Shown in pieces: positions 4,609 through 35,603 of a stretch of 38,966 bases of DNA. Every line of letters starts with the position of its first letter. Within the stretch, counting starts at the first letter, position 1. This DNA is from Patescibacteria group bacterium (GTDB lineage: Bacteria; Patescibacteriota; Patescibacteriia; Magasanikbacterales; GWA2-37-8): NCBI GenBank assembly GCA_004321885.1, contig SCQK01000005.1, forward strand, positions 1 through 38,966, read 5' to 3'. The position numbers were made by a program, and so were the translations under genes. The notes beneath the pieces were generated by a model. It was given only the letters and a program-made list of their open reading frames with translations. It ran no database searches and had not been told where the DNA came from.

Positions 4609-4989
4609 ATGATTTCCAACTGTCATTCCTGCGCAAGCAGGAATCCATCAATATCCAAACGCGCGCGTTTAGTAAGATTTTTTCAAAACATCTCTTTGCC
4701 GGGTTGGCTGACTTCGGTCGCGTTTAGATTAATTTGCCTGGCGATCGCGGCCGGATTCGGTTTCCTGTATGTGGCGAAGACAGCGTCTACGTCCGCGAAC
4801 GGATACAAAATAAATACTCTGGAAAAAGAAACCATCGCGCTGGAAAAAGAAATAGATGAATTGCAGGTGCGGCTGGCCGATTATAGCTCCATGCAAAATA
4901 TTCAAAGCCGGCTGGCCCAGTCCAATATGGCGCCGGTAACTGAATTGAGTTTTTATTCTTCGGTCGGAAAGATTGTGGCCAAGCGATAA
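4609..4989 (+). CDS. FtsL-like cell-division protein (single TM + coiled coil); true start probably downstream of the family-2 element (e.g. TTG near 4700)
   Basis: ORF 4609..4989; TM helix LICLAIAAGFGFLYV followed by coiled coil TLEKETIALEKEIDELQVRLADY; location after rsmH as in dcw clusters; first 13 codons of ORF are the translated hairpin repeat. Confidence 0.45.
   Translation: MISNCHSCASRNPSISKRARLVRFFQNISLPGWLTSVAFRLICLAIAAGFGFLYVAKTASTSANGYKINTLEKETIALEKEIDELQVRLADYSSMQNIQSRLAQSNMAPVTELSFYSSVGKIVAKR
4621..4647. repeat. family-2 hairpin element (TGTCATTCCTGC-gcaagc-GCAGGAATCCA)
   Basis: tgtcattcctgcgcaagcaggaatcca; related copies at 10229, 24045, 34599, 35575, partial at 9794. Confidence 0.7.
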
Positions 4990-5368
4990 TTTTTGTGGTA
5001 CAATACTGGCTGTTATGCCTATTCTTGTATTACAACGGCTGGCCTTGGAAGCGATTCTGGATTTTTTTTATTGGCCTTTTTGGTGGTACAGCAAAGGCGC
5101 GGCGCACGCGGCCAAATGGTGCGCGCATTTGTTTAGAAATATTGAGAACTCTTTGGCGCCCGGGCTGTGGTTGAAAAACATATTCGTGCCCATGTACGGC
5201 CAATACGACTGGCAAGGCCGGCTGGTCAGTTTCTTCATGCGCCTGATACAAATAATTTTCCGCGGCATCGCCGCGTTGGTATTTTTATTGGTTTGTTTCG
5301 GGTTGTTTTTGGTTTGGCTGGTTTTGCCGGTTATTGTTTTGTACGGGTTAGTTTCCGCCATATTGTGA
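4973..5368 (+). CDS. small hypothetical membrane protein
   Basis: ORF 4973..5368, hydrophobic segments (ILAVMPILVLQ; IAALVFLLVCFGLFLVWLVLPVIVLYGLV); no recognisable family. Confidence 0.35.
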   Translation: MWPSDNFCGTILAVMPILVLQRLALEAILDFFYWPFWWYSKGAAHAAKWCAHLFRNIENSLAPGLWLKNIFVPMYGQYDWQGRLVSFFMRLIQIIFRGIAALVFLLVCFGLFLVWLVLPVIVLYGLVSAIL

Positions 5369-5369
5369 T

Positions 5370-8150
5370 ATGCTGTTTGAGAAAAATCCGCCGTTAAATA
5401 TAATGACCTGCCCGACGTGTAAATCCACGGGCCGGGCCGGTTGGAAAAAATGTCCCGAGTGCGGGGGCATGGCTTTGGGTCACGCGGCGCGCAACAAGTG
5501 GCTGTTTTGGGATTATCCGCTGGTTCGGCACCATCTTTTGCTGGAAAAAGGCCGGCGCGTGCTAAACAGAATCCGCGTGCTGACGGCTCTGTGCGCCGGC
5601 GTTGTGGCTTGGCTGGGCGCTGGTTTGGAAATTTACAAGCAATACAAAAAATTGCCGTTTAATTTATTTTCGCCCGCGGAGTGGCTGGACACTCTCGCTG
5701 GTTTGAACGTGCCGGGAAAATTTTTATTCTGGCTGGGCCTGGCCGCTTTTTGTTATGTCTGGTATCGCTCCATTCGGCACGGCGAGTTCATGGGGCAGGT
5801 GGAAAAATTTGATTACAACATGGATTCCAGCTCCCGGGCTGGAATGACAGTCACGCCCGCGAATTGGCGCGAGGCCAGAAAACTGGCGCGTGTCAAAAAG
5901 CGCAACATCGCCAAGGCCTTTACCGAAGAAGCGCTGAAAATTTTGGGCGAGGCGTATTTTTTCGCGGACAGGAACGGACAGCGCGAAGTGGCGCCCGCGC
6001 ATTTGTTCGCCGCCCTGCTTACTTCCAATCGCATCAGCAATGTTTTTTCACGGCTGGGTCTGCCCGCCGAGCAGGTGTTGAAAAAATTAACCCCGATTTT
6101 GCAGGCGCAGTCCAAGAGCCAAGACCATTTCACCATGCCTTTGCCTTCGGCGGATTTTTGTCAGGCGTTGTTCGTGGCGTACGAAGAAGCATACAACGGA
6201 CATCAGGAATACGTGAGCGTGACCGAGCTTTTGGCCGCGGCCGTGAAACAAACTCCGGAAATACAAGAATTGCTTTTTGATTTGAACGTCAACCATCAGA
6301 AGCTGGCCAACGTGATTGAGTGGGCGCGCATCAGGGAAAAACTTTATCGCCAGTATTTGCGTTTGCGCCGCGCCGCCTCGCATCATTCCAAACACGGCAT
6401 GGACAAAGCCATGACCGCCATCGCCACGCCATACCTGAATCAGTTCAGCGAAGACATGACTATGCTCGCGCACTTCGGCCATCTGGACGAGTGCGTGGCG
6501 CGCGAAACCGAAACCCAGGAAATTTTCCGCGTCATAGAAGGCGGACAGGCGAACGTTCTGCTCGTGGGCGATTTTGGCACAGGCAAAAGTTCCATCGTGG
6601 AAGGCATCGCCGGAAGAATGCTGACCGACGACGTGCCGGCGCGCTTGCGCGATAAGCGTTTGGTGCGGCTTAGCGTGCCGTCGCTGTTGGCCGGTACCAC
6701 TCCGGCCGGAGCCGTGGAGCGTTTGCGCAACATCATGAACGAGATGGCTCGCGCGCGCAACATTATTTTATACATCCACAATTTACACGAACTTATCGGC
6801 GTCTCGGCCGGCACGGGCAAGGGCAGTTTGGACGTGGCCGACACCTTGGCCGAGTTTTTGGGTGGGGGCCGGTTTCTCACCATCGCCGACACCACTGACG
6901 AATTTTTCGCCCAGCTGGTCGCCAGCACGGCCATCGCCAATGTTTTCACCAAAGTGGAAATTCCGGAAGTGGACGAAAACCAGGCCATTCAGGTTTTGGA
7001 ATCAAAAGCCGGACAGTTGGAATACAAACACAACGTATTTTTTTCCTACGACGCCCTGGAGCGCGCGGTTCAGCTCTCGGCCAAGTTTTTGCACGACACG
7101 CGCTTGCCGGGCAGCGCCCTGGAAGTGATGACCGAAGCCGCCAGTTTGACGCGCAGTAAAAAAGGCGAAAATACTTTGGTGACGGGCGAAGAAGTGGCCA
7201 AAGTGATTTCCGAGAAAAGCAAAGTGCCGGTGACAACAGTCACCAGCGACGAGTCGGCCAAACTTCTACAACTGGAAGAAGAGATGCACAAGCGCGTCAT
7301 CGGGCAGGATGAGGCCGTGAATTTGGTGGCCAACGCTTTGCGCCGCGCGCGCGCCGAGATACGCAGCGGCAAAAGACCCATCGCCAACTTTTTATTCATG
7401 GGTCCGACCGGCGTGGGCAAAACCGAGCTGGCCAAAACCATCGCCGAGGTGTATTTTGGCGGCGAGGAGCGCATGATACGTTTGGACATGAGCGAATTTC
7501 AGGAAGGCGGCAGTATTTACCGCATGATAGGCACGCCCGGGCAAAAGGGCACCGGCATTCTTACCGAAGCCGTGCGCAGTCATCCGTTTTCGCTTTTGCT
7601 TTTGGATGAAATTGAAAAAGCGGACAAAGACGTGTTAAACTTGTTTTTGCAGGTGATGGACGACGGCCGGCTCACCGACAGCACGGGCCGGGTGGTGGAT
7701 TTTACCAACGTGATTTTAATCGCCACTTCCAACGCCGGCACGTCGTATGTGCAGGAGCAAATGCGCGCCGGGCTGTCCAGCGAGGCCATCAAAGAGCGTT
7801 TGCTTCACGGTGAATTGAATAATTATTTTAGGCCCGAGTTTTTGAACCGCTTTGACGGAATAGTGTTGTTTAAGGCATTAGAACGCGAAGATATAAAAAA
7901 GATTGCCGGATTGATGCTGGCGCGCATCGGCAAGAATTTGGAAGAAAAAGGGATTGAGCTTGAGGTGGGCGACCCGGCATTGGAATTTTTGGCCCACATT
8001 GGTTTTGACCCGGAGTTTGGCGCGCGACCCATGCGTCGCGCTTTGCAGGAAAGGGTGGAGAATAAATTGGCTGAGTTGTTGTTGGGTGGGAAGCTCAAAC
8101 GAAAAGATAAGGTGGTGATAGGGGAAGGGGGAGAGATAACGGTGAAATGA
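5370..8150 (+). CDS. ClpC/ClpA-like double-AAA+ ATPase with N-terminal zinc ribbon and membrane anchor; degenerate D1 Walker B
   Basis: N-term CPTC...CPEC zinc ribbon then TM helices; two Clp-N repeats; D1 Walker A GDFGTGKSSIVEGIAGRM, D1 Walker B position reads ILYIHNLHELIG (IHN instead of IDE); D2 Walker A GPTGVGKTELAKTIA and Walker B/sensor LLLLDEIEKADKDVLNLFLQVMDDGRLTD. Confidence 0.8.
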   Translation: MLFEKNPPLNIMTCPTCKSTGRAGWKKCPECGGMALGHAARNKWLFWDYPLVRHHLLLEKGRRVLNRIRVLTALCAGVVAWLGAGLEIYKQYKKLPFNLFSPAEWLDTLAGLNVPGKFLFWLGLAAFCYVWYRSIRHGEFMGQVEKFDYNMDSSSRAGMTVTPANWREARKLARVKKRNIAKAFTEEALKILGEAYFFADRNGQREVAPAHLFAALLTSNRISNVFSRLGLPAEQVLKKLTPILQAQSKSQDHFTMPLPSADFCQALFVAYEEAYNGHQEYVSVTELLAAAVKQTPEIQELLFDLNVNHQKLANVIEWARIREKLYRQYLRLRRAASHHSKHGMDKAMTAIATPYLNQFSEDMTMLAHFGHLDECVARETETQEIFRVIEGGQANVLLVGDFGTGKSSIVEGIAGRMLTDDVPARLRDKRLVRLSVPSLLAGTTPAGAVERLRNIMNEMARARNIILYIHNLHELIGVSAGTGKGSLDVADTLAEFLGGGRFLTIADTTDEFFAQLVASTAIANVFTKVEIPEVDENQAIQVLESKAGQLEYKHNVFFSYDALERAVQLSAKFLHDTRLPGSALEVMTEAASLTRSKKGENTLVTGEEVAKVISEKSKVPVTTVTSDESAKLLQLEEEMHKRVIGQDEAVNLVANALRRARAEIRSGKRPIANFLFMGPTGVGKTELAKTIAEVYFGGEERMIRLDMSEFQEGGSIYRMIGTPGQKGTGILTEAVRSHPFSLLLLDEIEKADKDVLNLFLQVMDDGRLTDSTGRVVDFTNVILIATSNAGTSYVQEQMRAGLSSEAIKERLLHGELNNYFRPEFLNRFDGIVLFKALEREDIKKIAGLMLARIGKNLEEKGIELEVGDPALEFLAHIGFDPEFGARPMRRALQERVENKLAELLLGGKLKRKDKVVIGEGGEITVK

Positions 8151-8152
8151 CA

Positions 8153-8169
8153 AATTTCCAATTTCCAAT
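8153..8169. promoter_or_regulatory. AATTTCCAATTTCCAAT direct repeats (reverse complement of TTGGAAATT array at 3619)
   Basis: caaatttccaatttccaatg in intergenic region after ClpC-like gene. Confidence 0.35.
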
Positions 8170-8182
8170 GTCAAATTTGACA
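8169..8182. promoter_or_regulatory. perfect 14-nt palindrome TGTCAAATTTGACA upstream of MraY/WecA-like gene (candidate operator)
   Basis: self-complementary tgtcaaatttgaca ~70 nt upstream of ATG 8251. Confidence 0.35.
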
Positions 8183-8250
8183 TTAGTCATCGGACATTGA
8201 TTGGAAATGCTTCCCTTCGGTCAGAAAAAGGGTAATTAAAATTTGATATT

Positions 8251-9285
8251 ATGGCTTATTTTTTTTCTGCCTTTCTACTATCTGTATTGCTTACATTTAT
8301 AGTAAGAAAGCTCGCGATACGTTTGAATGTGATGGATATTCCCGATGGCGGGAGAAAGGCACACTCCGGAAAGGTGCCGCTTCTTGGGGGAGCGGCGATT
8401 TTTTTTGCGTTTTGGGCCGTGATTTTTTATTTGTTTTTTTATCCGACAGCCGGAGTGGAACTTTTACAAGAAAAATTATTGGCGGCATTTTTCGCGAGTT
8501 TGGTAATCATGGTTATTGGTTTTATTGATGACGCGCGGCCGCTTCCAGCCAAAATCCGTTTTTTGATCACGGCTTTGGCCATCGGCGCGGCGGTTTTATT
8601 TACGCCGTGGCTCGGAAAAATCACCAATCCGCTGGGCGGGGTTTTGGAATTGGGTTTGGTGTTTGGCAATGTGCTTGCTTTTTTCTGGCTGCTCGGCATG
8701 ACTTATACCACTAAAATTTTGGACGGTTTGGATGGGTTGGCGACGGGTATAGCGGCTATCGGCGCTTTGATGATATATTTTTTATCCAGTTCGCAAAAGT
8801 ATCATCAACCCAACGTGGCGTTGTTGGCGCTGATTTTAGCCGGGGTCCTGTTCGGGTTTTTGCTTTTCAATTTTCATCCGGCCAAGATTTTTTTGGGCGA
8901 GAGCGGCAGTTTGCTGGTTGGTTTTTTACTCGCAGTGCTCGCCATCATCGCCGGCGGCAAAATCGCCACGGCTTTACTCGTGCTCGCTATTCCCATTTTG
9001 GATTTGGCGCGCGTCGTTTATTTGCGTTTGGCGCGGGGCCAGCCGATTTCGCAAGGCGACCGCGAACATTTGCATTTTCGTTTGCTTGACATGGGCATGA
9101 GCCAGCGCCGCGCCGTGCTTTTGCTTTACGGCGTCGCGCTTGCTTTTGGATTGTCCACTTTGTTTTTACAGTCATATCAAAAGTTAATCGCCTTGCTTTT
9201 TTTGGTTGTAGCCATGGGCGTGGCGGGCGTGTGGTTGCGCCGACGTTCCCCTCCCCTTTATAAGGGGAGGGATAGGGAGGGGTAA
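8251..9285 (+). CDS. polyprenyl-phosphate sugar-phosphate transferase, MraY/WecA (GT4/PNPT) family; C-terminal 13 codons are a family-1 repeat
   Basis: multi-TM; DIPDGGRKAHSGKVPLLGG, IGFIDDARPL, KILDGLDGLATG motifs of MraY/WecA family; tail RRRSPPLYKGRDREG is translated palindromic element. Confidence 0.8.
   Translation: MAYFFSAFLLSVLLTFIVRKLAIRLNVMDIPDGGRKAHSGKVPLLGGAAIFFAFWAVIFYLFFYPTAGVELLQEKLLAAFFASLVIMVIGFIDDARPLPAKIRFLITALAIGAAVLFTPWLGKITNPLGGVLELGLVFGNVLAFFWLLGMTYTTKILDGLDGLATGIAAIGALMIYFLSSSQKYHQPNVALLALILAGVLFGFLLFNFHPAKIFLGESGSLLVGFLLAVLAIIAGGKIATALLVLAIPILDLARVVYLRLARGQPISQGDREHLHFRLLDMGMSQRRAVLLLYGVALAFGLSTLFLQSYQKLIALLFLVVAMGVAGVWLRRRSPPLYKGRDREG
9246..9282. repeat. family-1 palindromic element (inside 3' end of CDS; provides SD for next gene)
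   Basis: ttcccctcccctttataaggggagggatagggagggg. Confidence 0.8.
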
Positions 9286-9288
9286 AGT

Positions 9289-9774
9289 ATGTTTTTCAAA
9301 AAACGCGAAAACAAACAAATAAAAAAATGGGAGTGGATAATGCTTTTGGTTATCCTCGGTTTTTCCATTTTCGGCAAAATATATTATTCGCGTTGGCCCA
9401 CCGCCGTGGTGAAAATCGGGGGGCGGGAAGTGAGCGTGCTGGTGGCGGACAACGAATTGCACCGATTCAAGGGTTGGAGCAAGCGCGACGATATGGGCAA
9501 ATACGGCGGCATGCTGTTTGTATTTCCCGAGCGCGGCCAGCACGCCATGGTGATGCGCGATATGCGTTTTCCTTTGGATATTATTTGGATAGACGGCACG
9601 AAGATTGTGGATATAGCGCCAAATCTTCAACCGGACCCGGCTAATACCGAAGCTGGACTGACCCCATATTTCGCCCGTTTACCTTCTACTTTGGTATTGG
9701 AATTATCCTCGGGTTTCACTCAGAAAAACGGGGTAAAAATAGGGGATACTATTTCTATTTCCTCCCCCTATTAG
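9289..9774 (+). CDS. DUF192 domain protein
   Basis: N-term TM then GWSKRDDMGKYGGMLFVFPE...MRDMRFPLDIIWIDG pattern characteristic of DUF192/COG1430; stop codon TAG is the loop of a family-1 element. Confidence 0.7.
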   Translation: MFFKKRENKQIKKWEWIMLLVILGFSIFGKIYYSRWPTAVVKIGGREVSVLVADNELHRFKGWSKRDDMGKYGGMLFVFPERGQHAMVMRDMRFPLDIIWIDGTKIVDIAPNLQPDPANTEAGLTPYFARLPSTLVLELSSGFTQKNGVKIGDTISISSPY

Positions 9775-9782
9775 GGGGAGGG
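9761..9782. repeat. family-1 palindromic element (cctccccctattagggggaggg)
   Basis: perfect inverted repeat; loop TATTAG supplies stop codon of DUF192 gene. Confidence 0.8.
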
Positions 9783-9793
9783 TTGGGAAACGG

Positions 9794-9842
9794 GCAGGAA
9801 TGACAGGGTAGCGATAGGGGAATGGAGCTTGCTTCATTCCCC
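9794..9842. repeat. composite hairpin region (partial family-2 GCAGGAATGACAG + ggggaatg..cattcccc hairpin)
   Basis: gcaggaatgacagggtagcgataggggaatggagcttgcttcattccccgcag. Confidence 0.5.
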
Positions 9843-9892
9843 GCAGTAAAAAAATCGTCTGTGTCAGCAGGCGGTTTTTTTATTTTTTTAGG

Positions 9893-9921
9893 TGGACAAA
9901 TGTCTGTTTTTATGATACAAT
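9893..9921 (+). promoter_or_regulatory. sigma70-like promoter (TGGACA-17-TACAAT)
   Basis: TGGACA 9893-9898, 17-nt spacer, TACAAT 9916-9921, ~20 nt upstream of ATG 9941. Confidence 0.45.
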
Positions 9922-9940
9922 ACAGCTATAAAAATACATT

Positions 9941-10180
9941 ATGTACAACTGGAGCGTGGACACAAAACAACTGAAAAAAGACAAAAAACAATACGCTATC
10001 TGGCGGCTGGAACAGCTGGTCAATTTTGGTTTGGGTAAAGAAAAATTAAGCAAAATCCAGCTCAAAAAATATTGGCCTCAACTTCATTTGGACCCTAAAA
10101 AGAAAAGGTTTTTGAGTTTTCTTTTATGGCCGAGCAAAAAGTACGATGAAACCGTCTGCAAAGTATGGTGTAGTTATTGA
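9941..10180 (+). CDS. hypothetical small basic protein (79 aa)
   Basis: ORF with upstream promoter-like element; no recognisable motif. Confidence 0.4.
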   Translation: MYNWSVDTKQLKKDKKQYAIWRLEQLVNFGLGKEKLSKIQLKKYWPQLHLDPKKKRFLSFLLWPSKKYDETVCKVWCSY

Positions 10181-10228
10181 CAAAAAAAGAAAAAAGGGCT
10201 ATTATTGGAACACTTAAAATAATGTGCT

Positions 10229-10260
10229 GGATTCCCCCGACTTAGTCGGGGGAATGACAG
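10229..10260. repeat. family-2-related hairpin (attcccccgac-ttag-gtcgggggaat + gacag)
   Basis: ggattcccccgacttagtcgggggaatgacag just upstream of rplU. Confidence 0.6.
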
Positions 10261-10272
10261 ACGGAAAATAGT

Positions 10273-10578: not shown

Positions 10579-10593
10579 CTACCCCCTCTTAGT

Positions 10594-10615
10594 CTCCCCC
10601 TTATAAAGGGGGAGA
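10594..10615. repeat. family-1 palindromic element (tctcccccttataaagggggaga)
   Basis: perfect inverted repeat between rplU stop and recR stop. Confidence 0.8.
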
Positions 10616-11248
10616 TTTTGTTGTTCGGTTTTTTATCGCGCTGGAGAGGGTGATGTCGTCGGCGTATTGCAAGTCGCCGCCCATGGGCAGGCCCTTGGCC
10701 AAACGCGAGACCTTGAGCCCGGGCGCCGCGGCTTTTATTTTTTTCTCCAAGTACATCATCGTGATTTCGCCGGCCAAATCCGGATTAAGGGCGAGGATTA
10801 TTTCTGTAAGCCCCTTACCCCCCCCTAACTCTCCCCTTATAAAGGGGAGGGAAACCCTGTTCAGCAATTCTTTTATTTTAATTTTTTTCAAACTGTCTTC
10901 GTCGTCGGCTTGCAAAACGCCGCGCAAAACGTGGTAAACTCCGACGAACGCGCCGGTGCTTTCTATGGCTTGCAGATCTTGCGGTTCGGCCACCACGCAG
11001 ATACGCGAACGGTCGCGTTTGGGGTCGCGGCAAATCGGGCAGGGATTAACGTCGCCGAAATCCCAGCATGTCTCGCAACTTTTGGTGTTGGCCAGCAATT
11101 CGTTCAGCGCGCCGCGCAGTTCGTTCACTTCGCCCTTGCCGGTTTTGAGCCAATGATAAATAAACCGTTCAGCGGTTCTTTGCCCGACTGACGGCAGTTT
11201 TTTCAGAGAGCTTAAAAGACGTTTAATTGAAGGTGATTGCATAGCCAA
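10601..11248 (-). CDS. recR: recombination protein RecR (with in-frame family-1 insert)
   Basis: KLPSVGQRTAERFIYH HhH, C4 zinc finger CETCWDFGDVNPCPIC, Toprim ICVVAEPQD, GVYHVLRGVL; internal LPFIRGELGGGKG segment encoded by palindromic element 10811-10852. Confidence 0.9.
   Translation of the reverse strand: MAMQSPSIKRLLSSLKKLPSVGQRTAERFIYHWLKTGKGEVNELRGALNELLANTKSCETCWDFGDVNPCPICRDPKRDRSRICVVAEPQDLQAIESTGAFVGVYHVLRGVLQADDEDSLKKIKIKELLNRVSLPFIRGELGGGKGLTEIILALNPDLAGEITMMYLEKKIKAAAPGLKVSRLAKGLPMGGDLQYADDITLSSAIKNRTTKSPPL
10811..10852. repeat. family-1 palindromic element inside recR CDS
   Basis: ccccttacccccccctaactctccccttataaaggggaggga. Confidence 0.75.
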
Positions 11249-11263
11249 ACCCCACCCTTTATT

Positions 11264-11607: not shown

Positions 11608-11633
11608 AGATGTTTTTATACCCCACACTTTAT

Positions 11634-11666
11634 CCCTCCCCTAAAAGGGGAGGGGCATGGGGAGGG
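11634..11666. repeat. family-1 palindromic element (ccctcccctaaaaggggaggggcatggggaggg)
   Basis: inverted repeat between dnaB stop and ybaB start; left flank ccccacacttta resembles flank of copy at 11252. Confidence 0.8.
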
Positions 11667-11671
11667 TTTAA

Positions 11672-13270: not shown

Positions 13271-15373
13271 ATGCTTAAAAAAATTCTGTTTTTGGTGGTA
13301 ATTTGCGGCTTGATTTACGCCAATCTGGCCTATTGGCGCGCTGGCTGGCTTGGGCTGTTTTTTTTGTTTATTTATTTGGTCGCGGTTCAGGCCCCGGCTT
13401 TTCACGTATTGCATAAATTTTTTAACTTTCCCAATGCTTGGCGCACCAGGGCGCTGGCTGGTTTTTTCGCGTTCGCGATTTTGGGTTCAATGCTTGGAGT
13501 AATTGTCGTGTTCGCGCGTTTTACCGCCGAGACTATCGCGCTCGCTTTTTTTGCCAATGGCCTGCTTTTGAGCGCGCTCGCCTGGTGGGCGGCGCGGGCG
13601 CGCAAAAATGAAGCCGAGAATTTCGGCGAAGACACGGTTTATCAAAATGCCCTGCCCGAATTTTTAGCCGTGGTTTATTTTTTGCTTTTGGCCGTTGGCG
13701 CGCTTGTTTTGTACTGGTCAAAAACCGGCCGCGAACTGGCCAGCCCGTGGCAAACCATTTCTCCCTACTATATATATATCTTCTTCGCGGCCACCTTTGT
13801 TTTAGGCCTGCTGATTTTTTCCAAACTGCGCGCCAAGACCGTGCTTTTTCTTTTAGTGGCGCATTCGCTTTTATTGCATGCCTATCTGCCGCTCACGCAC
13901 CAGCTGGTTTATGGCGCGGACCAGTGGCGGCATATTGCTTCGGAAACGCGGCTCATCGCCAGCGGGCAAGCGCCCGCTATTTCCGCCGGCCTTTTTTCAT
14001 ACAGTCAACTGTGGGGCATTGAGGCGTCTTTGTCGCGCCTGTTTGACGCGCCGCTCTTCACAATCAACGGCTATCTTTTGCCGCTTGCCTGGTCATTGAT
14101 TTTCCCCTTGCTTTTATTTGAGCTGGCCCAGGCCCTAAGCTACAACAAGCGCAAGTCGCTGTTTTTTGCCTGGCTCGGATTTTTGTTTTTTGCCTGGCAG
14201 GCGGCCGGCTCGTTTACCTTGCCGAACAATTTTGGTTTTTTGGTATGGCTGTTTTTATTTTTGCTGTTGATAAAAAGAATAAATTTTTCCAGACGCGAGC
14301 AGATTATTGTATTGGCTGTCGCCGCGTTCATGTCGTTTTTCGGGTACGCATTGTATTTGATTTTGTTTTTGGTTGCCTGGGCGCTGGTGGAAATTTTCGT
14401 TTGGCGACGATACTCCCACCTCGCCTCCCCCTTAGTAAGGGGAGGGAAACAGGAGAGGGTATGGGTGTTGGTTTTAACATTTATCACAGCAGTCTTCATT
14501 ATTCCCGCCGCGGAAATCGCGGGCGGCTTCGCGCGGTTTGGCGCGCCCGTGGATTGGCTCGCGCAAATCAAACAAATGGCCGGCAATTTCTCGGCGTATT
14601 TTTTGGCCAACGGCCCGCGACCGCACGATATTTTGGGCGGCAATATTTTGTTTAATCAAACGCCGGCCTACGCTTTTGTGGAAAATATTTTTACTGCTTG
14701 GCGCTGGCCCCTCGCGGTTTTCGCGATTTTGTTTTTTGTTTTCGCGATGAGCGGGGCGTTCATCATTTTCCGGCGCCGGACAGCCGCGCATAAATGGGCG
14801 CTCGCTTATTTAAGCGGCTTGTTTTTGTCTTATCTCGCTGTTTTTTATTTTTTTCTCGGGGAAAAAATTCTGACGCGCCGGCTGGACAACGTATTGGCCC
14901 TGCTTTTTATTTTAGCCGCGTTGGCCGCTCTGGCGGCTCTTTTTGACAGATACAAAAAACCGGCGGCTATTGTGGCGCTGGTGTTTATTTTGTCCGCGGC
15001 CATGGCGGCCTCGTATTCGCTCGGGCCCGACACGCGGGCCATGAGCGCGGATGAATACAACGCCATGCGTTATGTTTGGGAAAATGAAAAGAGCGAAAAA
15101 AAACACTGCGTGCTGGCCGACACCATGCCGCTGTTGGCTTTGGAGGCGCTGTCCGGCAAAGAAATAGTCGGCGGCGGATTTCCCATTAACAAATATTTCG
15201 CCCAGCCAGAGAGAGTGGAATTGCTCAAAGAGGCAAAGGAAAATTTGAATGCTATCTCAATAAACAAATCATTGGCGCTTACCGGCGCGGATAAGTGCTG
15301 GATAGTTGGGGAGTTTAATTTGCCTGACGCGAAAAATTTTGGGAAAGTGAATGTAGGGAGGTACGGTAAATAA
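13271..15373 (+). CDS. large polytopic membrane protein (700 aa, >=12 predicted TM helices), function unknown (possibly GT-C-like glycosyltransferase)
   Basis: long ORF with regularly spaced hydrophobic helices; contains in-frame family-1 element (HLASPLVRGGKQE) at 14424. Confidence 0.6.
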   Translation: MLKKILFLVVICGLIYANLAYWRAGWLGLFFLFIYLVAVQAPAFHVLHKFFNFPNAWRTRALAGFFAFAILGSMLGVIVVFARFTAETIALAFFANGLLLSALAWWAARARKNEAENFGEDTVYQNALPEFLAVVYFLLLAVGALVLYWSKTGRELASPWQTISPYYIYIFFAATFVLGLLIFSKLRAKTVLFLLVAHSLLLHAYLPLTHQLVYGADQWRHIASETRLIASGQAPAISAGLFSYSQLWGIEASLSRLFDAPLFTINGYLLPLAWSLIFPLLLFELAQALSYNKRKSLFFAWLGFLFFAWQAAGSFTLPNNFGFLVWLFLFLLLIKRINFSRREQIIVLAVAAFMSFFGYALYLILFLVAWALVEIFVWRRYSHLASPLVRGGKQERVWVLVLTFITAVFIIPAAEIAGGFARFGAPVDWLAQIKQMAGNFSAYFLANGPRPHDILGGNILFNQTPAYAFVENIFTAWRWPLAVFAILFFVFAMSGAFIIFRRRTAAHKWALAYLSGLFLSYLAVFYFFLGEKILTRRLDNVLALLFILAALAALAALFDRYKKPAAIVALVFILSAAMAASYSLGPDTRAMSADEYNAMRYVWENEKSEKKHCVLADTMPLLALEALSGKEIVGGGFPINKYFAQPERVELLKEAKENLNAISINKSLALTGADKCWIVGEFNLPDAKNFGKVNVGRYGK
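14424..14445. repeat. family-1 palindromic element inside membrane-protein CDS
   Basis: cctcccccttagtaaggggagg. Confidence 0.8.
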
Positions 15374-21513: not shown

Positions 21514-22305
21514 ATGTTCAAACGGCTGTCTCTCCACCCCAAACTGGTGGCGGTTGTTGATACGCTCATTACCCTGGCCATGCTGTGGTGGCTGAATGGG
21601 ATGAGCTCAAAAATTGTTTTGGCGCTCTGGTTTGTTTTTCGTCTGGCCATCTGGGCCGGTTTTATAAAACTGATGTATTTTTCCGCCGGCGCCAGCCGCG
21701 CGCGCCATTTTTTGTCTTTATTGATTTTTTGCGCGGGCCTGCTGACATTTATTCTTTTTACCGAGTGGACGCCGGCGCGCCTGCTCTTTGAAGCAATTTT
21801 CGCGCTCTTTCCTTTTTTTGGTTTTTGGCTTTTGCCGGCCTCGGAGGCCGGCCTTCCCACTTTTTTGAAGCCCCATTCGCGCCTGTCGTTTATGATGTGC
21901 ATCATCGGTCTGGCCGGAATTTTCGCTTTGGTCTCCGCCATCTCATCGTTTCAACTGCTCACCAGCGTCAGCGCGTGGGTGTGGATTGTTTTAGCTTCGC
22001 TCGTCGCTACGGCCGTGGCTGGCTGGTGGTGGTTTGAGTACGGCCTGAAAGTGGACGACAAGTTTATTTCCCGTCTCGCCATTTGGTTTGTGATGTTTTT
22101 GGAATTTTTATGGGTGATTCTAATACTGCCGTTCGGATACATGGTAAATGGCCTGCTCACCATTTGGTGCTGGTATATTTTGTGGCTTTTGATGCGCTTT
22201 AACATGACCGAAGAGGGAATCAAGTGGCGCAAGCAGGCGCTGTTTCTGGTTTCAAACGTTGTTTTATTTGTGGGATATTTGCTGTTGGCGGTTAAGTGGA
22301 AATAA
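21514..22305 (+). CDS. hypothetical polytopic membrane protein (263 aa)
   Basis: multiple hydrophobic helices, W-rich; no family recognised. Confidence 0.5.
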   Translation: MFKRLSLHPKLVAVVDTLITLAMLWWLNGMSSKIVLALWFVFRLAIWAGFIKLMYFSAGASRARHFLSLLIFCAGLLTFILFTEWTPARLLFEAIFALFPFFGFWLLPASEAGLPTFLKPHSRLSFMMCIIGLAGIFALVSAISSFQLLTSVSAWVWIVLASLVATAVAGWWWFEYGLKVDDKFISRLAIWFVMFLEFLWVILILPFGYMVNGLLTIWCWYILWLLMRFNMTEEGIKWRKQALFLVSNVVLFVGYLLLAVKWK

Positions 22306-24044: not shown

Positions 24045-24083
24045 ATCATTCCCGCGAAGCCGCCAGCTGGCGGCCGGAATCCA
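24045..24083. repeat. family-2-related hairpin element (ATCATTCCCGCGAAGC...GGCCGGAATCCA)
   Basis: atcattcccgcgaagccgccagctggcggccggaatcca with inner palindrome gccgccagctggcggc. Confidence 0.55.
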
Positions 24084-24089
24084 GCGCTC

Positions 24090-24914
24090 ATGTCAAACGA
24101 CCAACAAAAAATCATCGCCCGCGAAGAACAGCGGCTGGAATCGCTGGCGGCGGATATTGCCAAATCCCCCAGGCCGGAATTGCTGGCCAAGACCAATTCT
24201 TTGCGCGCTCTGTGGCAGAGATGCAAAGAGGCCGCCAAACAAAAACAGGCTGACCTCAAAATTTTAGTGGAAAAATACGCCGGGGATTTTCTCTCGTTGA
24301 AGTGGGAGGCGGATAAGGCGCGCATTGCCCCGCCGCCGGCCCGCGCGCTGTCGCCGGCGGAAAAAATTATTTTCTCACTGCTCAAAAGAGAGTGGCTGCC
24401 CTTCAAATCCCTGCTTTGCGAAGGCAAGCAGGAGGCGGCGAAAAAATGGATAGTGAGTGTGATAAATTTTTGTCTGAAAGAAACAAATCAGGAGGCGGGA
24501 AAATGGAGTAAAGAGGCGGAGGCCATTGCCCAAAAAGCGTGCGACACGGTGTTGGCTTTGGCCAACGAGCAAAAACACAGAATTAAAGACGGTTTTTTGA
24601 AAAAAATATTCGGCGGCCGGAGCGACGCGGAAAAAATAGCCGAGCTGATACGGCGCGATTTTATCACCCCGGGCCAACTGGCCGAACTGGTGGCCGGCGA
24701 AGTGAAAGCGATATTAAGCCAGCCCTTGCCCGCGGCGCTCGCCGACGCCAAACCTGTCATTCTGGCTCCCGAGCCGGAATCCATCGCGGGAATCCAGAGC
24801 GCATTGGAGACGAAGGAGATAATTTCGGAAGAGGCGGCATCAGCGGACGACTGGGGCGAGGACGAAGACGACAAAGAGCCCTGGGAGCAGGGCAAAGAGG
24901 GGATAGCGGGCTGA
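24090..24914 (+). CDS. hypothetical alpha-helical protein with acidic C-terminus (275 aa)
   Basis: ORF 24000..24914 trimmed to ATG 24090 after the hairpin element; stop overlaps next start (ATGA). Confidence 0.5.
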   Translation: MSNDQQKIIAREEQRLESLAADIAKSPRPELLAKTNSLRALWQRCKEAAKQKQADLKILVEKYAGDFLSLKWEADKARIAPPPARALSPAEKIIFSLLKREWLPFKSLLCEGKQEAAKKWIVSVINFCLKETNQEAGKWSKEAEAIAQKACDTVLALANEQKHRIKDGFLKKIFGGRSDAEKIAELIRRDFITPGQLAELVAGEVKAILSQPLPAALADAKPVILAPEPESIAGIQSALETKEIISEEAASADDWGEDEDDKEPWEQGKEGIAG

Positions 24915-25735: not shown

Positions 25736-25763
25736 CATCCCTCCCTTTTAGGGGAGGGGCAGG
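25736..25763. repeat. family-1 palindromic element (catccctcccttttaggggaggggcagg)
   Basis: inverted repeat ccctccc-tttta-ggggagggg. Confidence 0.75.
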
Positions 25764-31439: not shown

Positions 31440-31600
31440 TACCTGTTCCCAAAACAGGTGTTTTTGGGTATAAATAATATAGTCTTTGAAAATTAAAGTA
31501 GGTTTGGCGCTTGGCGCCACAACAGGGCAACGATAAGGACGTGCCCTAACAGCGAGCCACGACAAGGACGAGCTCGCAAACGGAGAGAATGGAGAGAGAG

Positions 31601-33487
31601 ATGAGCGATGAGAGAAACGAGGGAAGGAGCCCCCTCTGGAACGGCTCCCGGGACGAGGGCCCGCAGCGACCCCACACACCAACGCTTGATGGTCTGGTAG
31701 CTGTGGTCGACCAGCCGGAGGAGCAGCCCGCACTGCTTCATTGCCCGTGCGGGTGGCAGGTGTACTCGCGGGCTACGGCGAAGATAGCCATGGTCAGCAA
31801 CTCGTGTCCGCTGACCGGAGACGAGCTGGCCCTGACGGTGGAGGATGTTGCGAAGCTCGCGGACGAACTTCGCGATGTCCACGCCTTCCCCATCCGCACC
31901 TTCTTTCAGAAGGTGCAGTTCCCGGTGACGGTCGTCTGCGACTGCGGCGACTCGGAGCTGGAATTGGTGGAGAGCGGGGTGGAGGAGGAGTGTGTGAAGT
32001 GCCGCCGGCACTATGTCATTACCGCGGACGCGGAGATGTACATGGTGATTGACAAGAAATTGGCGCGGCCGGACACGCTCCGCACCGGCCAGCCCGTGGC
32101 GCCCACGGCTTCGGGTGAGGTGGACTCGCGTCCGACCATCGCGCCGGCCGGGCCCGACGAGGAAACGCGGGTCGGAGAGCCTGTCCCGCTGGTGGAGACG
32201 TCGGACGTCCCGGACGACGCCCAGACCAGCGAGCGCGTTTCGCCTCCGCCGGAGGAGTCTGGTCATCAGATGGTCCAGGCGCCGGACGCCGACCCCTCGG
32301 ACTTCGAGGGCAAGAGCCCGACGGCTCCTGGCGTAATACCCGAAGAGGAGCTGGTGGCTCTGGAGCTGATGGCTTCGTTGGCAGCGGCCGCCAGCGGTCC
32401 GGCCCAGGGCCCGGCTTTTGACCAGTCGGGTATGGCCGTGTTGGACGTGAACTGCCCGGAGTGCAGAAGGGTCTTCACGGTCAATCGCGAGCTGGGTGCG
32501 GCGATGTGTCCGCACTGCAGGGCCGTGTTTGAGGTTTTGGTAGCGGGCGGCCGGGTTGAGTTTGTCCGGTGCGTGGTGCCGGGCAACAAACTGCCTCCGC
32601 CCACCCCGCTCGACGCGGGCGGCAGAACCCAGCAGGGCTTTGTCTCGCCCGTGCCGCCGAGGCAGGACCCGCCGACGTTGGATCAGCCCCTCGCCCAGCT
32701 CGATGTTCTTCGGGACAAGAGCCGCGAGAGGTCACAGCCCGGCGAGTCCGAGGCGTCTGCGTTGCCAGCACCCGCGGAGGCGATTCCGCTCTCCGCCATC
32801 GCGGCGCCGACCGGCGTCGGACCGAGCTTCAAGCTGGTGGACGTCTCCCGGGCGCGTTTGCGCGCGAGCGTCAGTCTCGGCCCGAAGGACCGACAGTCAA
32901 CGGGCGAGATTCGCCCAGCGGCGCGTCGCCTGCCTCGCTGGGTCCATGGCGCGTTCGGCGTGCTCGGGCTCGGATTCTGTGTGCTCTTGGGGATAGTGCT
33001 GAATCAGGGCGCTCTCCTCAAGGAGAACACGCGGCGGAGCCAGGCGGCCGAGCAGAAGAGTGCCGCGGCCGAGGAGCAGAGCAAGGCCGCGGCGAAGGAT
33101 AGTGCCGAGGCTGTGCTCAAGAGCGCGCGGGCCGAAGTTGAGGCCAAGACCGCCAGAAAAACGGCGGACAAGGCCAATACCCGATTGGACACGCAGGAGG
33201 CGGCGCGCGAGAAGCTGGACAAGGAGCTCGCCGCCAGCGCACGGTCTGTCGCCGCCTTCCAGAAGGCGACGAATACGGCCATTGGGAACATCAAGGGCCA
33301 GGTCGCTAGACAGAGTGCTGATCTGCGTCAGACAATCGCAAGGGCGCAGGCAACGCTTGACCAAATCAAGCGCGACCTGGCTTCGGCGAACGCGGCGCCC
33401 GCCAAGCGCGTCCCGCCATCGTTCCTACCCGCCAAGGTTCCCAAGATGCGCCCCCCGGATCACCTGATACGGCGTCGCAACGACTAA
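31601..33487 (+). CDS. zinc-ribbon (MJ0042-like) / single-TM / C-terminal coiled-coil protein, GC-rich
   Basis: three CxxC...CxxC pairs (HCPCGW..SCPLTG; CDCGDS..CVKCRRH; NCPECRRVF..CPHCRAVFEV); TM VHGAFGVLGLGFCVLLGIVL; A/K/Q-rich coiled coil; GGAGAGAG SD before ATG 31601. Confidence 0.55.
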   Translation: MSDERNEGRSPLWNGSRDEGPQRPHTPTLDGLVAVVDQPEEQPALLHCPCGWQVYSRATAKIAMVSNSCPLTGDELALTVEDVAKLADELRDVHAFPIRTFFQKVQFPVTVVCDCGDSELELVESGVEEECVKCRRHYVITADAEMYMVIDKKLARPDTLRTGQPVAPTASGEVDSRPTIAPAGPDEETRVGEPVPLVETSDVPDDAQTSERVSPPPEESGHQMVQAPDADPSDFEGKSPTAPGVIPEEELVALELMASLAAAASGPAQGPAFDQSGMAVLDVNCPECRRVFTVNRELGAAMCPHCRAVFEVLVAGGRVEFVRCVVPGNKLPPPTPLDAGGRTQQGFVSPVPPRQDPPTLDQPLAQLDVLRDKSRERSQPGESEASALPAPAEAIPLSAIAAPTGVGPSFKLVDVSRARLRASVSLGPKDRQSTGEIRPAARRLPRWVHGAFGVLGLGFCVLLGIVLNQGALLKENTRRSQAAEQKSAAAEEQSKAAAKDSAEAVLKSARAEVEAKTARKTADKANTRLDTQEAAREKLDKELAASARSVAAFQKATNTAIGNIKGQVARQSADLRQTIARAQATLDQIKRDLASANAAPAKRVPPSFLPAKVPKMRPPDHLIRRRND

Positions 33488-33572
33488 CCGAGCGCTCTTT
33501 CCGCGGCGTGTGTGAGTATGTAAGCAGAGGTGAATGAAAATTCCTTCCGCTTCCCTCCCACTCCACACGCCA

Positions 33573-33620
33573 ATCCCCCTATGATTCCAAATTTTGGAAT
33601 TATAGGGGGATTTTTGTTTT
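33573..33620 (+). terminator. long palindrome + T-run (atccccctatgattccaaa-tt-ttggaattatagggggat TTTTGTTTT)
   Basis: near-perfect 19-bp inverted repeat followed by U-run, downstream of zinc-ribbon gene. Confidence 0.55.
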
Positions 33621-33631
33621 ATTCAAATTTT

Positions 33632-33652
33632 CCTCCCCTATTAGGGGAGGGG
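33632..33652. repeat. family-1 palindromic element in GC-rich segment (cctcccctattaggggagggg)
   Basis: identical core to copy at 1507. Confidence 0.8.
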
Positions 33653-33711
33653 CAAGGGGTGGAGTTTTACCTTTATCTTAGCCAAAATTCGTTCTCTTAT
33701 CGAAAAATCTC

Positions 33712-33740
33712 TTGACAGAAATACCGAACTGTGCTATTCT
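33712..33740 (+). promoter_or_regulatory. sigma70-like promoter (TTGACA-17-TATTCT)
   Basis: cttgacagaaataccgaactgtgctattct upstream of ORF 33787/33892. Confidence 0.45.
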
Positions 33741-33891
33741 TAACAGTTAAAATCAAATTAGTTTCAATGCGCGAGAGAGGCATTGTATGAGGATTTCACT
33801 CATCAAGCCACTCCCGCGTCCACGGGTTTTTTTCTTTACAATCGTCTCTGACATTAGTAATGCCGGAGCACAACAAGAAAGGAGGCCAGGA

Positions 33892-34515
33892 ATGGCCGAT
33901 GAACCGAAAGTCATCGTCGAGGTAGACAAGGAGTGTCTTTTTTGCAAGCGGGACATCCCCCAGCTCCAGGAGGAGCTGGCGGGTGTGAAGAAGTTGCAAG
34001 AGGCGCAGGAGGACGCGGTCGGTGGCAGTTTGCGCCGACTGCGTATGGGTATGACGGCCTTCGCGGTCGCGTTGGCGTTGATTGTCGTCATCAGTCTTGT
34101 TGTGGTTTACATCCGCCTGACCGAGACGACGGGCCAGCGCGCCGCTCCGGTTCCCAGCCGGCTGGTCCAGCGCTTGTCCCAGACAGAACAGCGTCTGGGC
34201 AAGCTGGAGGGGACCATCGGGCTTTTGAAAAGCGCGATGGAGAGGCTTGCGGAGCAGTTCGGAAAGGTGCTCTCCGACATCACCAAGATGCCGAAGGCAT
34301 CACAACCGCCTGCCTCCCAGCCGGTGGTCACTGCGCCGCCGCTCCGGACAACGCCGCTTGTCAAGACGGCCAAGCCGAGTGAAAGAGAGGGCCTGTTGCC
34401 CTGCAAGCAGGAGAAGGAGTCCTGCGTAAAGGGGAATGAAGGTCGCGTCGGCAAGGAGAGGGCCCTGCAGTTTTGCGCCACTTTCTTCAGACAGGGAGGG
34501 CCGAACTGCAAGTGA
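33892..34515 (+). CDS. hypothetical TM + coiled-coil protein, GC-rich (start could be 33787)
   Basis: AGGAGG 6 nt upstream of ATG 33892; TM AFAVALALIVVISLVVVYI; coiled-coil segment. Confidence 0.45.
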   Translation: MADEPKVIVEVDKECLFCKRDIPQLQEELAGVKKLQEAQEDAVGGSLRRLRMGMTAFAVALALIVVISLVVVYIRLTETTGQRAAPVPSRLVQRLSQTEQRLGKLEGTIGLLKSAMERLAEQFGKVLSDITKMPKASQPPASQPVVTAPPLRTTPLVKTAKPSEREGLLPCKQEKESCVKGNEGRVGKERALQFCATFFRQGGPNCK

Positions 34516-34598
34516 GTAGGGTCTCCTCACCGCCACGCCGCATTCCAGCCGCCGAGACCCATCCAACCCAATGTATATGACTGTTATTTCGGTACGCT

Positions 34599-34630
34599 AT
34601 GTCATTCCTGCCATAAGAGCAGGAATTTAT
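34599..34630. repeat. family-2 hairpin element in GC-rich segment
   Basis: tgtcattcctgccataagagcaggaattta; upstream flank cccaatgtatatgactgtt shared with copy at 35575. Confidence 0.7.
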
Positions 34631-34873
34631 CACCGGAATTCACGGTCGTATACAGTGAATTTGGAAGGAACATTACAATAAGCGAAATGAGCGAGTAAAT
34701 AATTTTGCTTGCAAAATTATTTCGAGCGAATGAGCTTTATATCATTGATATATTCTGGTTCGCAAAAAGGACAGGTGTCATTGCGAGCGAAGCAATCCCG
34801 TCTTATTTGCGACCCAGAATTTCAACCCGGTTTCCGCCTGCTGGACGCAGGCAAAAATGAAAGGAGGCACATT

Positions 34874-35470
34874 ATGTGCCGTCTGATCGGAGAGCTCGAC
34901 GGCGAGCTGTTCGCCGTCGAGCTGAACAAGCTCGGCGCTGTCCCCCCCTCCCCCAACCAGCCCCCGGCGGCCCCGCCCCGGCCCGGCGGCGGCGCCCAGC
35001 CGCCCGTTGGCGCGGGCGCGCCCCCCGCGGGCGCGTGCAGGGCCACGCCCTGCCGGTTCTCGTCGTGGCTGATCATTGCCGCGGTGGGGCTGGCAGCGGT
35101 GGCGATCATCATCACGATGATCGCCCTGCGCGACGGCAAGTCGGCGCAGGTCGCGCCCGCGGTCGCCCCGACCAAGTCGGTGCCGGCTACTCCGGCTGCC
35201 GCGGCCGCGACGCCCGCCAAGCCGGCACTCCCCCCCAATCAGATTGGCGCCCTGCCGGTCTACGGGGGCGGCGTGCACCTCCCCAGCATCACGCTGGAGG
35301 TCGCTCGCCCGCCGGTTGCGCCCGCGCCGGTCCTACCGCCCTTGGCCCCGCCGCCCGCGCCGAGCGCGGCGTTCCCGTCCTGTGACCAGGACGCGGAGTG
35401 CCTCGCGCTTGTCGCCGCCCACGGCGCCGGCGCCCGCCCCCGCTGCCCGCAGTTCTTCAACTGCCGGTAG
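34874..35470 (+). CDS. Pro/Ala-rich single-TM hypothetical protein
   Basis: AAAGGAGG SD 6 nt upstream of ATG 34874; TM WLIIAAVGLAAVAIIITMIAL; PA-rich low complexity. Confidence 0.45.
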   Translation: MCRLIGELDGELFAVELNKLGAVPPSPNQPPAAPPRPGGGAQPPVGAGAPPAGACRATPCRFSSWLIIAAVGLAAVAIIITMIALRDGKSAQVAPAVAPTKSVPATPAAAAATPAKPALPPNQIGALPVYGGGVHLPSITLEVARPPVAPAPVLPPLAPPPAPSAAFPSCDQDAECLALVAAHGAGARPRCPQFFNCR

Positions 35471-35574
35471 CGTGCGTCACCCCGCCGGGCCTTGTGGCTC
35501 GGCCCCTCCTTTCAACCCAGGGTCGGACATTCGCCTCGCGACTGTCCGACCCTTCCATCCCAATGTTTACGATT

Positions 35575-35603
35575 GTCATTCCTGCCCACGAGCAGGAATC
35601 CAC
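35575..35603. repeat. family-2 hairpin element (tgtcattcctgcccacgagcaggaatcca)
   Basis: same arms as 4621 copy. Confidence 0.7.

Follow-up and report, generated by a model that had tools for sequence, protein, structure and literature searches.

Contig SCQK01000005.1, a stretch of 38,966 nucleotides (nt) from the metagenome-assembled genome (MAG) of a Patescibacteria group bacterium, a member of the Candidate Phyla Radiation (CPR), carries a family of short dispersed hairpins. Comparison of the sequences indicates that these hairpins are, with good probability, elements of the Neisseria Transformation Sequence/Ssn-related motif (NTS/SRM) class, the type of single-stranded DNA (ssDNA) that is targeted by Ssn GIY-YIG nucleases. 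In Neisseria and Wolbachia, one strand of such an element is bound as an ssDNA hairpin and cut just upstream by the small GIY-YIG enzyme Ssn/SsnA (PMC11893778). The window analyzed here is the entire contig, and all contig-level searches were confined to its 38,966 nt. Membership by sequence, the potential to form a hairpin, lineage-specific presence, and the fact that other genomes, CPR genomes among them, carry the motif linked to ssn genes are established in this study. The repeat family, its enzyme, and its broad phyletic spread have already been published. What is new, and modest, is the presence and local expansion of the element in a Patescibacteria genome, the atypical loops, and the clear in-frame copies in core genes.

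Structure of the hairpins and their likeness to NTS/SRM

The hairpin family described in the initial annotation of this contig exists, at a frequency far above chance. The pattern GTCATTC-N10-22-GAATCC was matched five times in the contig, whereas 200 dinucleotide shuffles gave 0.025 matches on average and never more than one, and the earlier consensus with up to three mismatches was matched three times (5821 on the minus strand, 24755 and 35574 on the plus strand) compared to none in 100 shuffles. A looser scan (ATTC-stem-loop-stem-GAAT) yielded six clean copies, at 4621, 24755, 34600, and 35574 on the plus strand and at 5821 and 10228 on the minus strand. Degenerate pieces were found as well, namely a variant at 24045-24084, a 5′ half-copy at 9794-9806 (minus strand), a 3′ half-copy at 24785-24797 (plus strand), and a weak candidate at 32010-32045. 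The positions given earlier (4621, 10229 in inverted orientation, 24045 as an imperfect copy, 34599 and 35575, which are 34600 and 35574 here, and the half-copy at 9794) were correct, but the clean copies at 5821-5849 (minus strand) and 24755-24783 (plus strand) and the 3′ half-copy at 24785-24797 had been overlooked.

The pairing part of the unit is a palindrome of 8 to 11 bp, ATTCCnGC/GCnGGAAT, with a loop of 3 to 7 nt, giving a unit of 27 to 33 nt. The arms of 11 to 12 nt that had been proposed do contain this palindrome but are not fully complementary, as just 8 bp pair (ATTCCTGC/GCAGGAAT), and the 5′ TGTC and 3′ CCA are non-palindromic, mutually unpaired flanks from which the unit takes its orientation. 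GTC is found directly 5′ of the palindrome in all six clean copies and C directly 3′ of it in five. The middle of the stem differs among copies by compensating changes (CCTGC/GCAGG, CCAGC/GCTGG, CTGGC/GCCGG, and CCCCCGAC/GTCGGGGG). When folded as ssDNA, each of the six clean copies adopts the stem-loop as its minimum-energy structure (−6.1 to −13.3 kcal/mol), and the fold z-score against shuffles is strong in four copies and weak in those at 5821 (z −2.0) and 24755 (z −1.5). An Rfam gathering scan of the window matched transfer-messenger RNA (tmRNA) only, and the hairpins are covered by no family.

Chenal et al. (2025, Nat Commun, PMC11893778) defined the NTS, CGTCATTCCCGCGMAVGCGGGAATCYRG, which encompasses the old dRS3 repeat, as well as the degenerate SRM, which occurs in several phyla. 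SsnA, a single-domain GIY-YIG protein of about 100 amino acids (aa) (cd10448), binds and cuts the NTS as ssDNA only and on one strand only, and it does not interact with the RNA form of the NTS. The C directly after the palindrome is critical for binding, and the three bases before the palindrome are critical for cleavage. Copies of the motif usually border the ssn genes, and in N. meningitidis the ssn/NTS pair lowers transformation by NTS-containing DNA. The genome set of that paper is described as RefSeq representative genomes, and its main text makes no mention of Patescibacteria or CPR (PMC11893778).

Several lines of evidence link the contig hairpins to this system. The copy at 4621 (TGTCATTCCTGCGCAAGCAGGAATCCAT) agrees with the NTS in 24 of its 28 positions, and of the four mismatches two belong together as a single compensating base pair. 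All six clean copies have a palindrome of the ATTCCCGCG..GCGGGAAT type that can fold into a hairpin, with 8 to 11 consecutive pairs and a short loop. A covariance model trained on 47 copies, all from outside the window and some of them directly flanking GIY-YIG genes, recovered the six window copies, each correctly oriented, with E values of 8e-12 to 4e-4. (A separate covariation set was preselected for perfect pairing, so that it is 100% paired by construction and is informative in the diversity of its pair types only.) In addition to the core palindrome, the contig family shares with NTS/SRM the oriented flanks (yGTC upstream; C, C/T, A/G, and G downstream), a GMAV-type loop in the copy at 4621, many dispersed copies, and, in other genomes including those of CPR bacteria, the NTS-ssn-NTS arrangement around a single-domain GIY-YIG gene of 94 to 100 aa.

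The exact motif TGTCATTCCTGC-N3-9-GCAGGAATCCA, scanned in one genome per species, was found in at least 120 stretches. The taxa among the matches listed include Flavobacteriia, Nitrospirota, Chloroflexota, Omnitrophota, Planctomycetota, Rickettsia, Desulfobacterota, and Patescibacteria. The copy at 4621 (27 nt) is identical, loop letters aside, to copies in dozens of phyla. Among the matches listed, the flanks of the foreign copies are mutually unrelated, leaving a hairpin of about 27 nt as the only conserved unit, and the loops of 137 copies with the same stem are 4 nt long in 133 cases and 6 to 7 nt long in none; these loops are almost always GNRA-like and nearly always keep one orientation (GAAA 52, GAAG 31, and GGAA 15 compared to TTTC 1). 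In viral contigs, the motif was found in 20 stretches only, and nothing points to a phage origin of the hairpins.

A single-domain GIY-YIG open reading frame (ORF) with an Ssn-like profile was found in 7 of 120 foreign loci, each of up to 8 kb, among the matches listed; the GIY-YIG domain was confirmed by Pfam, and five of the seven ORFs directly abut a hairpin. For example, the GIY-YIG gene at 873-1175 of one locus (L030) lies between hairpins at 843 and 1185. Ssn-like proteins of 94 to 103 aa also occur in Patescibacteria (Pacebacteria and Moranbacteria), where their genes are flanked by the same hairpins. In the Pacebacteria locus (L128), hairpins lie about 60 nt upstream and about 50 nt downstream of the ssn-like gene, and the Moranbacteria locus (L131) has eleven hairpins in a stretch of about 1.1 kb.

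If the contig copies are the same kind of element as NTS/SRM, with a palindrome of 8 bp or longer, a short loop, yGTC on the 5′ side, and CCA or CCAG on the 3′ side, an Ssn-type enzyme would be encoded elsewhere in the genome, now or formerly, and would have helped the hairpins to spread in this Patescibacteria lineage. Such an enzyme would cut the contig copies and, less certainly, the variants with loops of 6 to 7 nt. The hairpins would come into play in any single-stranded state of the DNA, as in replication, repair, or DNA uptake, and they may have spread as selfish repeats resembling repetitive extragenic palindromic (REP) sequences. A conspicuous CPR repeat would then be explained by a mechanism that has been characterized experimentally elsewhere, and the system would extend to Patescibacteria, with their hairpin-flanked ssn genes. 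More speculatively, if Ssn/SRM, as in Neisseria, influences how incoming ssDNA is processed, this could matter in CPR bacteria.

Several observations weigh against the assignment to NTS/SRM or set the contig family apart from the published system. No contig copy matches the NTS with one mismatch or fewer, the best being the copy at 4621 with four. The SRM expression HGTCWYN(0-2)YYVSBRHN(0-5)WNVSBRGN(0-2)RNCYNB is matched only at 10227-10259, compared to 0.135 matches expected in shuffles; the dominant stem here is CCTGC rather than the CCCGC of the NTS, and it fails the expression because T is disallowed at the third stem position. The host belongs to a different group of bacteria (CPR), three copies stand in-frame inside genes, and no GIY-YIG or Ssn ORF of at least 45 aa was found on the 38,966-nt contig (hmmsearch, E ≤ 10). 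Loops of 6 to 7 nt are found in four of the six clean copies (5821, 24755, 34600, and 35574) in contrast to the near-universal tetraloop of foreign copies, and the copies with such loops may have decayed or may be poor substrates for Ssn. In the copy at 34600, T replaces the C after the palindrome that is critical for binding in Neisseria. Furthermore, the demonstrated activity of Ssn is cleavage, and its demonstrated biological effect concerns transformation in Neisseria only (PMC11893778).

Hairpins within genes and spacers

The DnaB protein of the contig is nearest to proteins of Candidatus Magasanikbacteria and similar MAGs, with up to 81% identity. Relatives obtained via DnaB homologs (loci L123 to L127; DnaB 77% to 81% identical; 52.8 kb in total) share a common gene order with the contig. 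At E ≤ 0.01, the covariance model detected no hairpin in these 52.8 kb, and this absence from syntenic relatives marks the contig copies, as far as sequence comparison goes, as lineage-specific insertions. The earlier proposal of a dispersed repeat that has spread agrees with this result, as the copies are missing at the orthologous sites of the relatives. The accompanying statement that all copies lie upstream of start codons or between genes does not hold, since the copies at 4621, 5821, and 24755 are in-frame inside ORFs.

The copy at 4621-4647 (plus strand; TGTCATTCCTGC-GCAA-GCAGGAATCCA) occupies codons 5 to 13 of the ftsL-like ORF at 4609-4989, where it encodes CHSCASRNP. It scored 45.1 bits with the covariance model (E 8e-12), and its DNA fold has an energy of −7.8 kcal/mol (z −4.8). 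At the rsmH-ftsL junction, the relatives read TAA-at-ATG TCA ATC AAG CGC (M S I K R) and their proteins start with M-SIKRQ. The contig reads ATG ATT TCC AAC, the hairpin, and then TCA ATA TCC AAA CGC, which gives M-ISNCHSCASRNP-SISKR with an insert of 12 aa that is not present in the relatives. The N-terminus had been regarded as spurious. The hairpin is most likely translated, apparently as an in-frame insertion after the start codon, and the N-terminus is probably not spurious, because the stretch from the hairpin to the conserved region contains no alternative start codon.

The copy at 5821-5849 (minus strand; TGTCATTCCAGC-CCGGGA-GCTGGAATCCA; 26.3 bits, E 7e-6) is in-frame in the ClpB-like gene at 5370-8150. 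It is translated as MDSSSRAGMTV and falls in a variable linker of the protein in an alignment with L123, L124, and L126. This ORF is genuine, as its product of 926 aa compares to 889 to 913 aa in the relatives, which have the same zinc-ribbon and membrane N-terminal extension. The extension of this ATPase, about 180 aa with a zinc-ribbon-like CxxC...CxxC motif and hydrophobic segments, is itself conserved in L123, L124, and L126. The third intragenic copy, at 24755-24783 (plus strand; TGTCATTCTGGC-TCCCGA-GCCGGAATCCA; 24.2 bits, E 4e-5), is in-frame in the C-terminal part of the hypothetical ORF at 24090-24914 (PVILAPEPES). It is followed 2 nt downstream by the 3′ half-copy at 24785-24797 (plus strand; CGCGGGAATCCAG, AGIQ), a sequence identical to the 3′ half of the NTS consensus from Neisseria, and the two together read PVILAPEPESIAGIQ.

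Five of the six reading frames through the hairpin unit are open on direct reading of the sequence, and hairpin copies can therefore persist in-frame as short peptide inserts, as in the ftsL-like, ClpB-like, and one hypothetical ORF. Among the matches listed, 9 of the 137 copies from other genomes are located well inside long ORFs. In four such foreign genes that were tested, encoding cysteinyl-tRNA synthetase, Lgt (in Kuenenbacteria), a GT1 glycosyltransferase, and an NAD-dependent epimerase, Pfam domains flank the hairpin peptide on both sides. The recurring hairpin peptides were confirmed directly in translations of foreign loci. A literature search for the peptide strings (VIPAKAGIQ and others) found no papers, and intragenic copies are not discussed in the Ssn paper (PMC11893778). 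For annotation, the peptides CHSCxxRNP, VIPAxAGIQ, WIPAxAGMT, and DSxxRxND turn up repeatedly in real genes and spurious ORFs alike and should be recognized by gene callers and curators.

Outside genes, the spacer between DUF192 and rplU (9775-10272) is 498 nt long in the contig compared to 47 nt in the relatives L126 and L127. The expanded spacer contains the 5′ half-copy at 9794-9806 (minus strand; CTGTCATTCCTGC), an adjoining inverted remnant (GGGGAATG..CATTCCCC) at 9817-9842, an ORF of 77 aa, and the copy at 10228-10259. The latter (minus strand; TGTCATTCCCCCGAC-TAA-GTCGGGGGAATCCA) has an 11-bp stem, scored 30.7 bits (E 3e-7), folds with −13.3 kcal/mol, and ends 14 nt 5′ of the rplU start codon (10273). 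The 77-aa ORF (9941-10174, plus strand; MYNWSVDTKQLKKDKKQYAIWRLEQLVNFGLGKEK...) is lysine-rich, has no Pfam match, and is missing from the syntenic relatives.

Two copies are found in the GC-rich part of the contig. That at 34600-34629 (plus strand; 20.8 bits, E 4e-4) reads TGTCATTCCTGC-CATAAGA-GCAGGAAT-TTA and is enclosed by a degenerate hairpin, with its 5′ half (TGTTATTTCGG) at 34582-34592 and its 3′ half (CCGGAATTCAC) at 34633-34643. This arrangement is consistent with the enclosing hairpin (34582-34643) being older and the copy at 34600 having landed in the loop of an existing one. The other copy lies at 35574-35602 (plus strand; TGTCATTCCTGC-CCACGA-GCAGGAATCCA; 33.1 bits, E 5e-8). The 5′ flank that had been described as common to these two copies is real and extends to a unit of about 90 to 125 nt, at 34556-34679 around the former and 35548-35637 around the latter. 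No paralogy was found between the genes downstream of the two copies.

The degenerate variant at 24045-24084 (plus strand) reads ATCATTCCCGCGAA-GCCGCCAGCTGGCGGC-CGGAATCCAG, with ATC rather than GTC as its 5′ flank and an extra palindrome of about 14 to 16 nt in its loop. It follows the Wzz-like ORF (stop at 24042), precedes the ATG at 24090, scored 13.9 bits only (E 0.07), and folds no better than shuffles. The weak candidate at 32010-32045 (plus strand; ATGTCATTACCGCGGACGCGGAGATG; 17.4 bits, E 0.005) lies inside the ORF at 31589-33487, contains two non-standard pairs, and may be a chance match.

Target-site duplications were not detected, as the best flanking 9-mer direct repeats match at 4 to 7 of 9 positions with p ≥ 0.07 for every copy; the 7/9 repeat at the ftsL copy (ATTTCCAAC/ATATCCAAA; p about 0.07) is suggestive. 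A classical miniature inverted-repeat transposable element, which the initial annotation had offered as one option, does not fit a unit of 27 to 33 nt with neither terminal inverted repeats beyond the hairpin nor a target-site duplication.

Alternative explanations and related repeats

The hairpins could instead work as RNA structures, whether intrinsic terminators, attenuators, or regulatory stem-loops in the 5′ untranslated regions of adjacent genes, and small regulatory RNA hairpins had indeed been suggested. Several copies are near gene starts, the copy at 10228 stops 14 nt short of the rplU ATG and has a promoter-like site (10177-10205) upstream of it, and the GNRA-like loops that dominate in foreign copies would also suit an RNA hairpin. 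However, the copies occur in both orientations although the genes are all on the plus strand, three copies are within coding sequence, none of the six stems is followed by a T-run, and no copy is among the terminator-like sites listed by the scan. With these features, intrinsic terminators were rejected, and the suggestion of small regulatory RNA hairpins is not supported, on the same grounds of mixed orientation, intragenic position, and missing T-tract. The hairpins, moreover, match no Rfam family, are missing from the same gene junctions in syntenic relatives, and resemble a target whose enzyme ignores its RNA form (PMC11893778). An RNA-level role is thus very unlikely. A chance or convergent likeness to NTS/SRM, in which the hairpins would be a lineage-private palindrome such as a protein operator, is the least credible of the alternatives. 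Most window copies do fail the literal published patterns, and their loop lengths are unusual, but the identity of the copy at 4621 with those of dozens of phyla, the conserved oriented flanks, and an expected count of about 0.03 all speak against it. The half-sites are spaced 20 to 25 nt apart, with compensating changes in the stem, as would suit a hairpin that folds rather than an operator bound as duplex.

It is improbable, though less so than either of these, that the hairpins are attachment or target sites for some other site-specific recombinase or transposase to which Ssn is irrelevant, a reading that is compatible with the Ssn one. Recombination sites had been the third option of the initial annotation. 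REP sequences serve RAYT (REP-associated tyrosine transposase) or IS110-type enzymes. The dRS3 repeat, the core of the NTS, is the target of a phage-encoded recombinase (PMC11893778), and the nested copy at 34582-34643 and the 5′ half-copies found about 21 nt upstream of whole copies in other phyla suggest that hairpins can be insertion targets. On the contig, however, a Pfam scan of the 30 largest ORFs detected neither a transposase nor a recombinase domain, none of the copies adjoins a mobile element, and the strict dRS3 pattern ATTCCC-N8-GGGAAT is missing from the window. In foreign loci, the GIY-YIG gene is the only gene that repeatedly adjoins the hairpins among the matches listed.

Comparison with other palindromic repeats places the contig family in a wider context. 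Like the dRS3 repeat and the mosaic arrays of Neisseria, it has an ATTCC..GGAAT palindrome and whole and half copies clustered in an expanded spacer (9775-10272); it differs in the host phylum, in having no match to ATTCCC-N8-GGGAAT, and in showing no associated phage or recombinase. Like REP/REPIN sequences and their RAYT enzymes, the SRM system consists of short extragenic palindromes whose ssDNA hairpins are recognized by the product of a single-copy, domesticated nuclease-type gene flanked by the repeats, with frequent inverted pairs (for example, L067 204-270 and L003 467/529) and no target-site duplications. RAYT, however, is an HUH/Y1 transposase related to IS200/IS605, whereas the SRM enzyme is a GIY-YIG nuclease, and REP has a tetranucleotide where SRM has the conserved GTC flank. 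No Y1/HUH RAYT domain was detected in the Pfam scan of the 30 largest ORFs.

The closest precedent for the intragenic copies is provided by the Rickettsia palindromic elements (RPEs), which insert in-frame into coding genes and add peptide segments while leaving the gene intact (review PMC10969869). RPEs are about 100 to 150 bp long compared to 27 to 33 nt for the contig unit, and only the copies at 34.6 kb and 35.6 kb share a longer unit of about 90 to 125 nt. In three Rickettsia loci (L018, L026, and L079), the exact hairpin is central in longer repeat units whose flanks are common to the copies, and some RPE families may be built around an SRM core. A bolder and rather doubtful proposal is that SRM hairpins are a source of RPE-like in-frame peptide inserts in many phyla, that this CPR genome is actively accumulating them even in core genes (ftsL and the gene of the ClpB-like chaperone), and that new copies prefer to land in or next to existing hairpins. 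The last part is suggested by the nested copy at 34582-34643 together with the recurrent 5′ half-copies, and, if true, would give a first handle on the copying of Ssn-associated repeats.

Half-copies and arrays are also seen elsewhere. In unrelated phyla, 5′ half-copies lie about 21 to 23 nt upstream of whole copies (near hairpins in L034, L049, L062, L087, and L120), and runs of GCGGGAATGACA half-copies surround the ssn gene of the Moranbacteria locus (L131 4700-5630), beside whole copies. Such arrayed half-copies may be the footprint of element copying. In genomes of Flavobacteriaceae and Omnitrophus, the hairpin forms part of tandem arrays that repeat every 300 nt or 186 nt, approximately (L014 6556-7830, L023 1-400, and L052 4684-5082), and the L014 array abuts a GIY-YIG gene.

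Gene content and further features of the contig

The genes identified on the contig encode a pentapeptide-repeat protein, beta-CASP, mraZ, rsmH, the ftsL-like ORF, a small membrane protein, the ClpB-like ATPase, a GT4 glycosyltransferase, DUF192, rplU, recR, ybaB, dnaB, HIT, NUDIX, SLT, a type IV coupling protein, tmRNA, smpB, and a Wzz-like protein, in addition to many ORFs without a Pfam match. A block at 31500-38966 is GC-rich (about 65% GC; third-codon-position GC of 0.80 to 0.87 compared to about 0.5 in the remainder) and carries ORFs on the plus strand only, with Ala/Pro-rich products and predicted membrane segments. These ORFs have zero Pfam matches, and their codon usage differs from that of the contig remainder. 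Horizontal acquisition of an island or a chimeric assembly may account for the block. The initial annotation took the repeat as tying the two parts to one genome. This argument is weaker than claimed, as the motif occurs in many phyla, but the belonging together of the two parts is given modest support by the hairpins themselves, because loops of 6 to 7 nt are found in both the ~50% and the ~65% GC parts.

A second hairpin family, CCCTCCCC-TTATAA-GGGGAGGG, is more abundant; it has an ACCCCnCCCT arm on its upstream side, is about 40 nt long, and occurs in both orientations and in both GC compartments. It is presumably the first family that the initial annotation implied. Its sites are at 1492-1531, 1955-2036, 9235-9286, 9760-9782, 10579-10618, 10815-10855, 11618-11670, 14410-14458, 25738-25761, 33627-33666, and 35657-35706. 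CCCCC..GGGGG hairpins that resemble this family adjoin SRM copies in the foreign loci L009, L077, and L094.

Other features were noted along the contig. The tmRNA at 20632-21043 (minus strand) has an unusually long predicted tag, ANLFSKVKVAFANMFGVRALAPSFA, and the adjoining smpB ORF (21036-21941, minus strand) encodes 301 aa with the SmpB domain confined to residues 157 to 298. AT-rich direct repeats of ATTGGAAATTG are present at 3604-3673 in the gap between mraZ and rsmH, with an inverted copy at 8146-8198 after the ClpB-like gene. The final, truncated ORF contains tandem coding repeats of about 123 to 129 nt each (38385-38901), which encode Cys-rich modules (GTEGxxC..CxxGLxCLSNVCVK), and its N-terminus is like that of the ORF at 37009-37890. 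The best terminator candidate 3′ of the ORF at 31589-33487 is a perfect 19-bp hairpin followed by a T-run at 33572-33612 (AATCCCCCTATGATTCCAAATTTTGGAATTATAGGGGGATT-TTTGTTTT), which has ATTCC..GGAAT at its center and lacks the GTC and CCA flanks.

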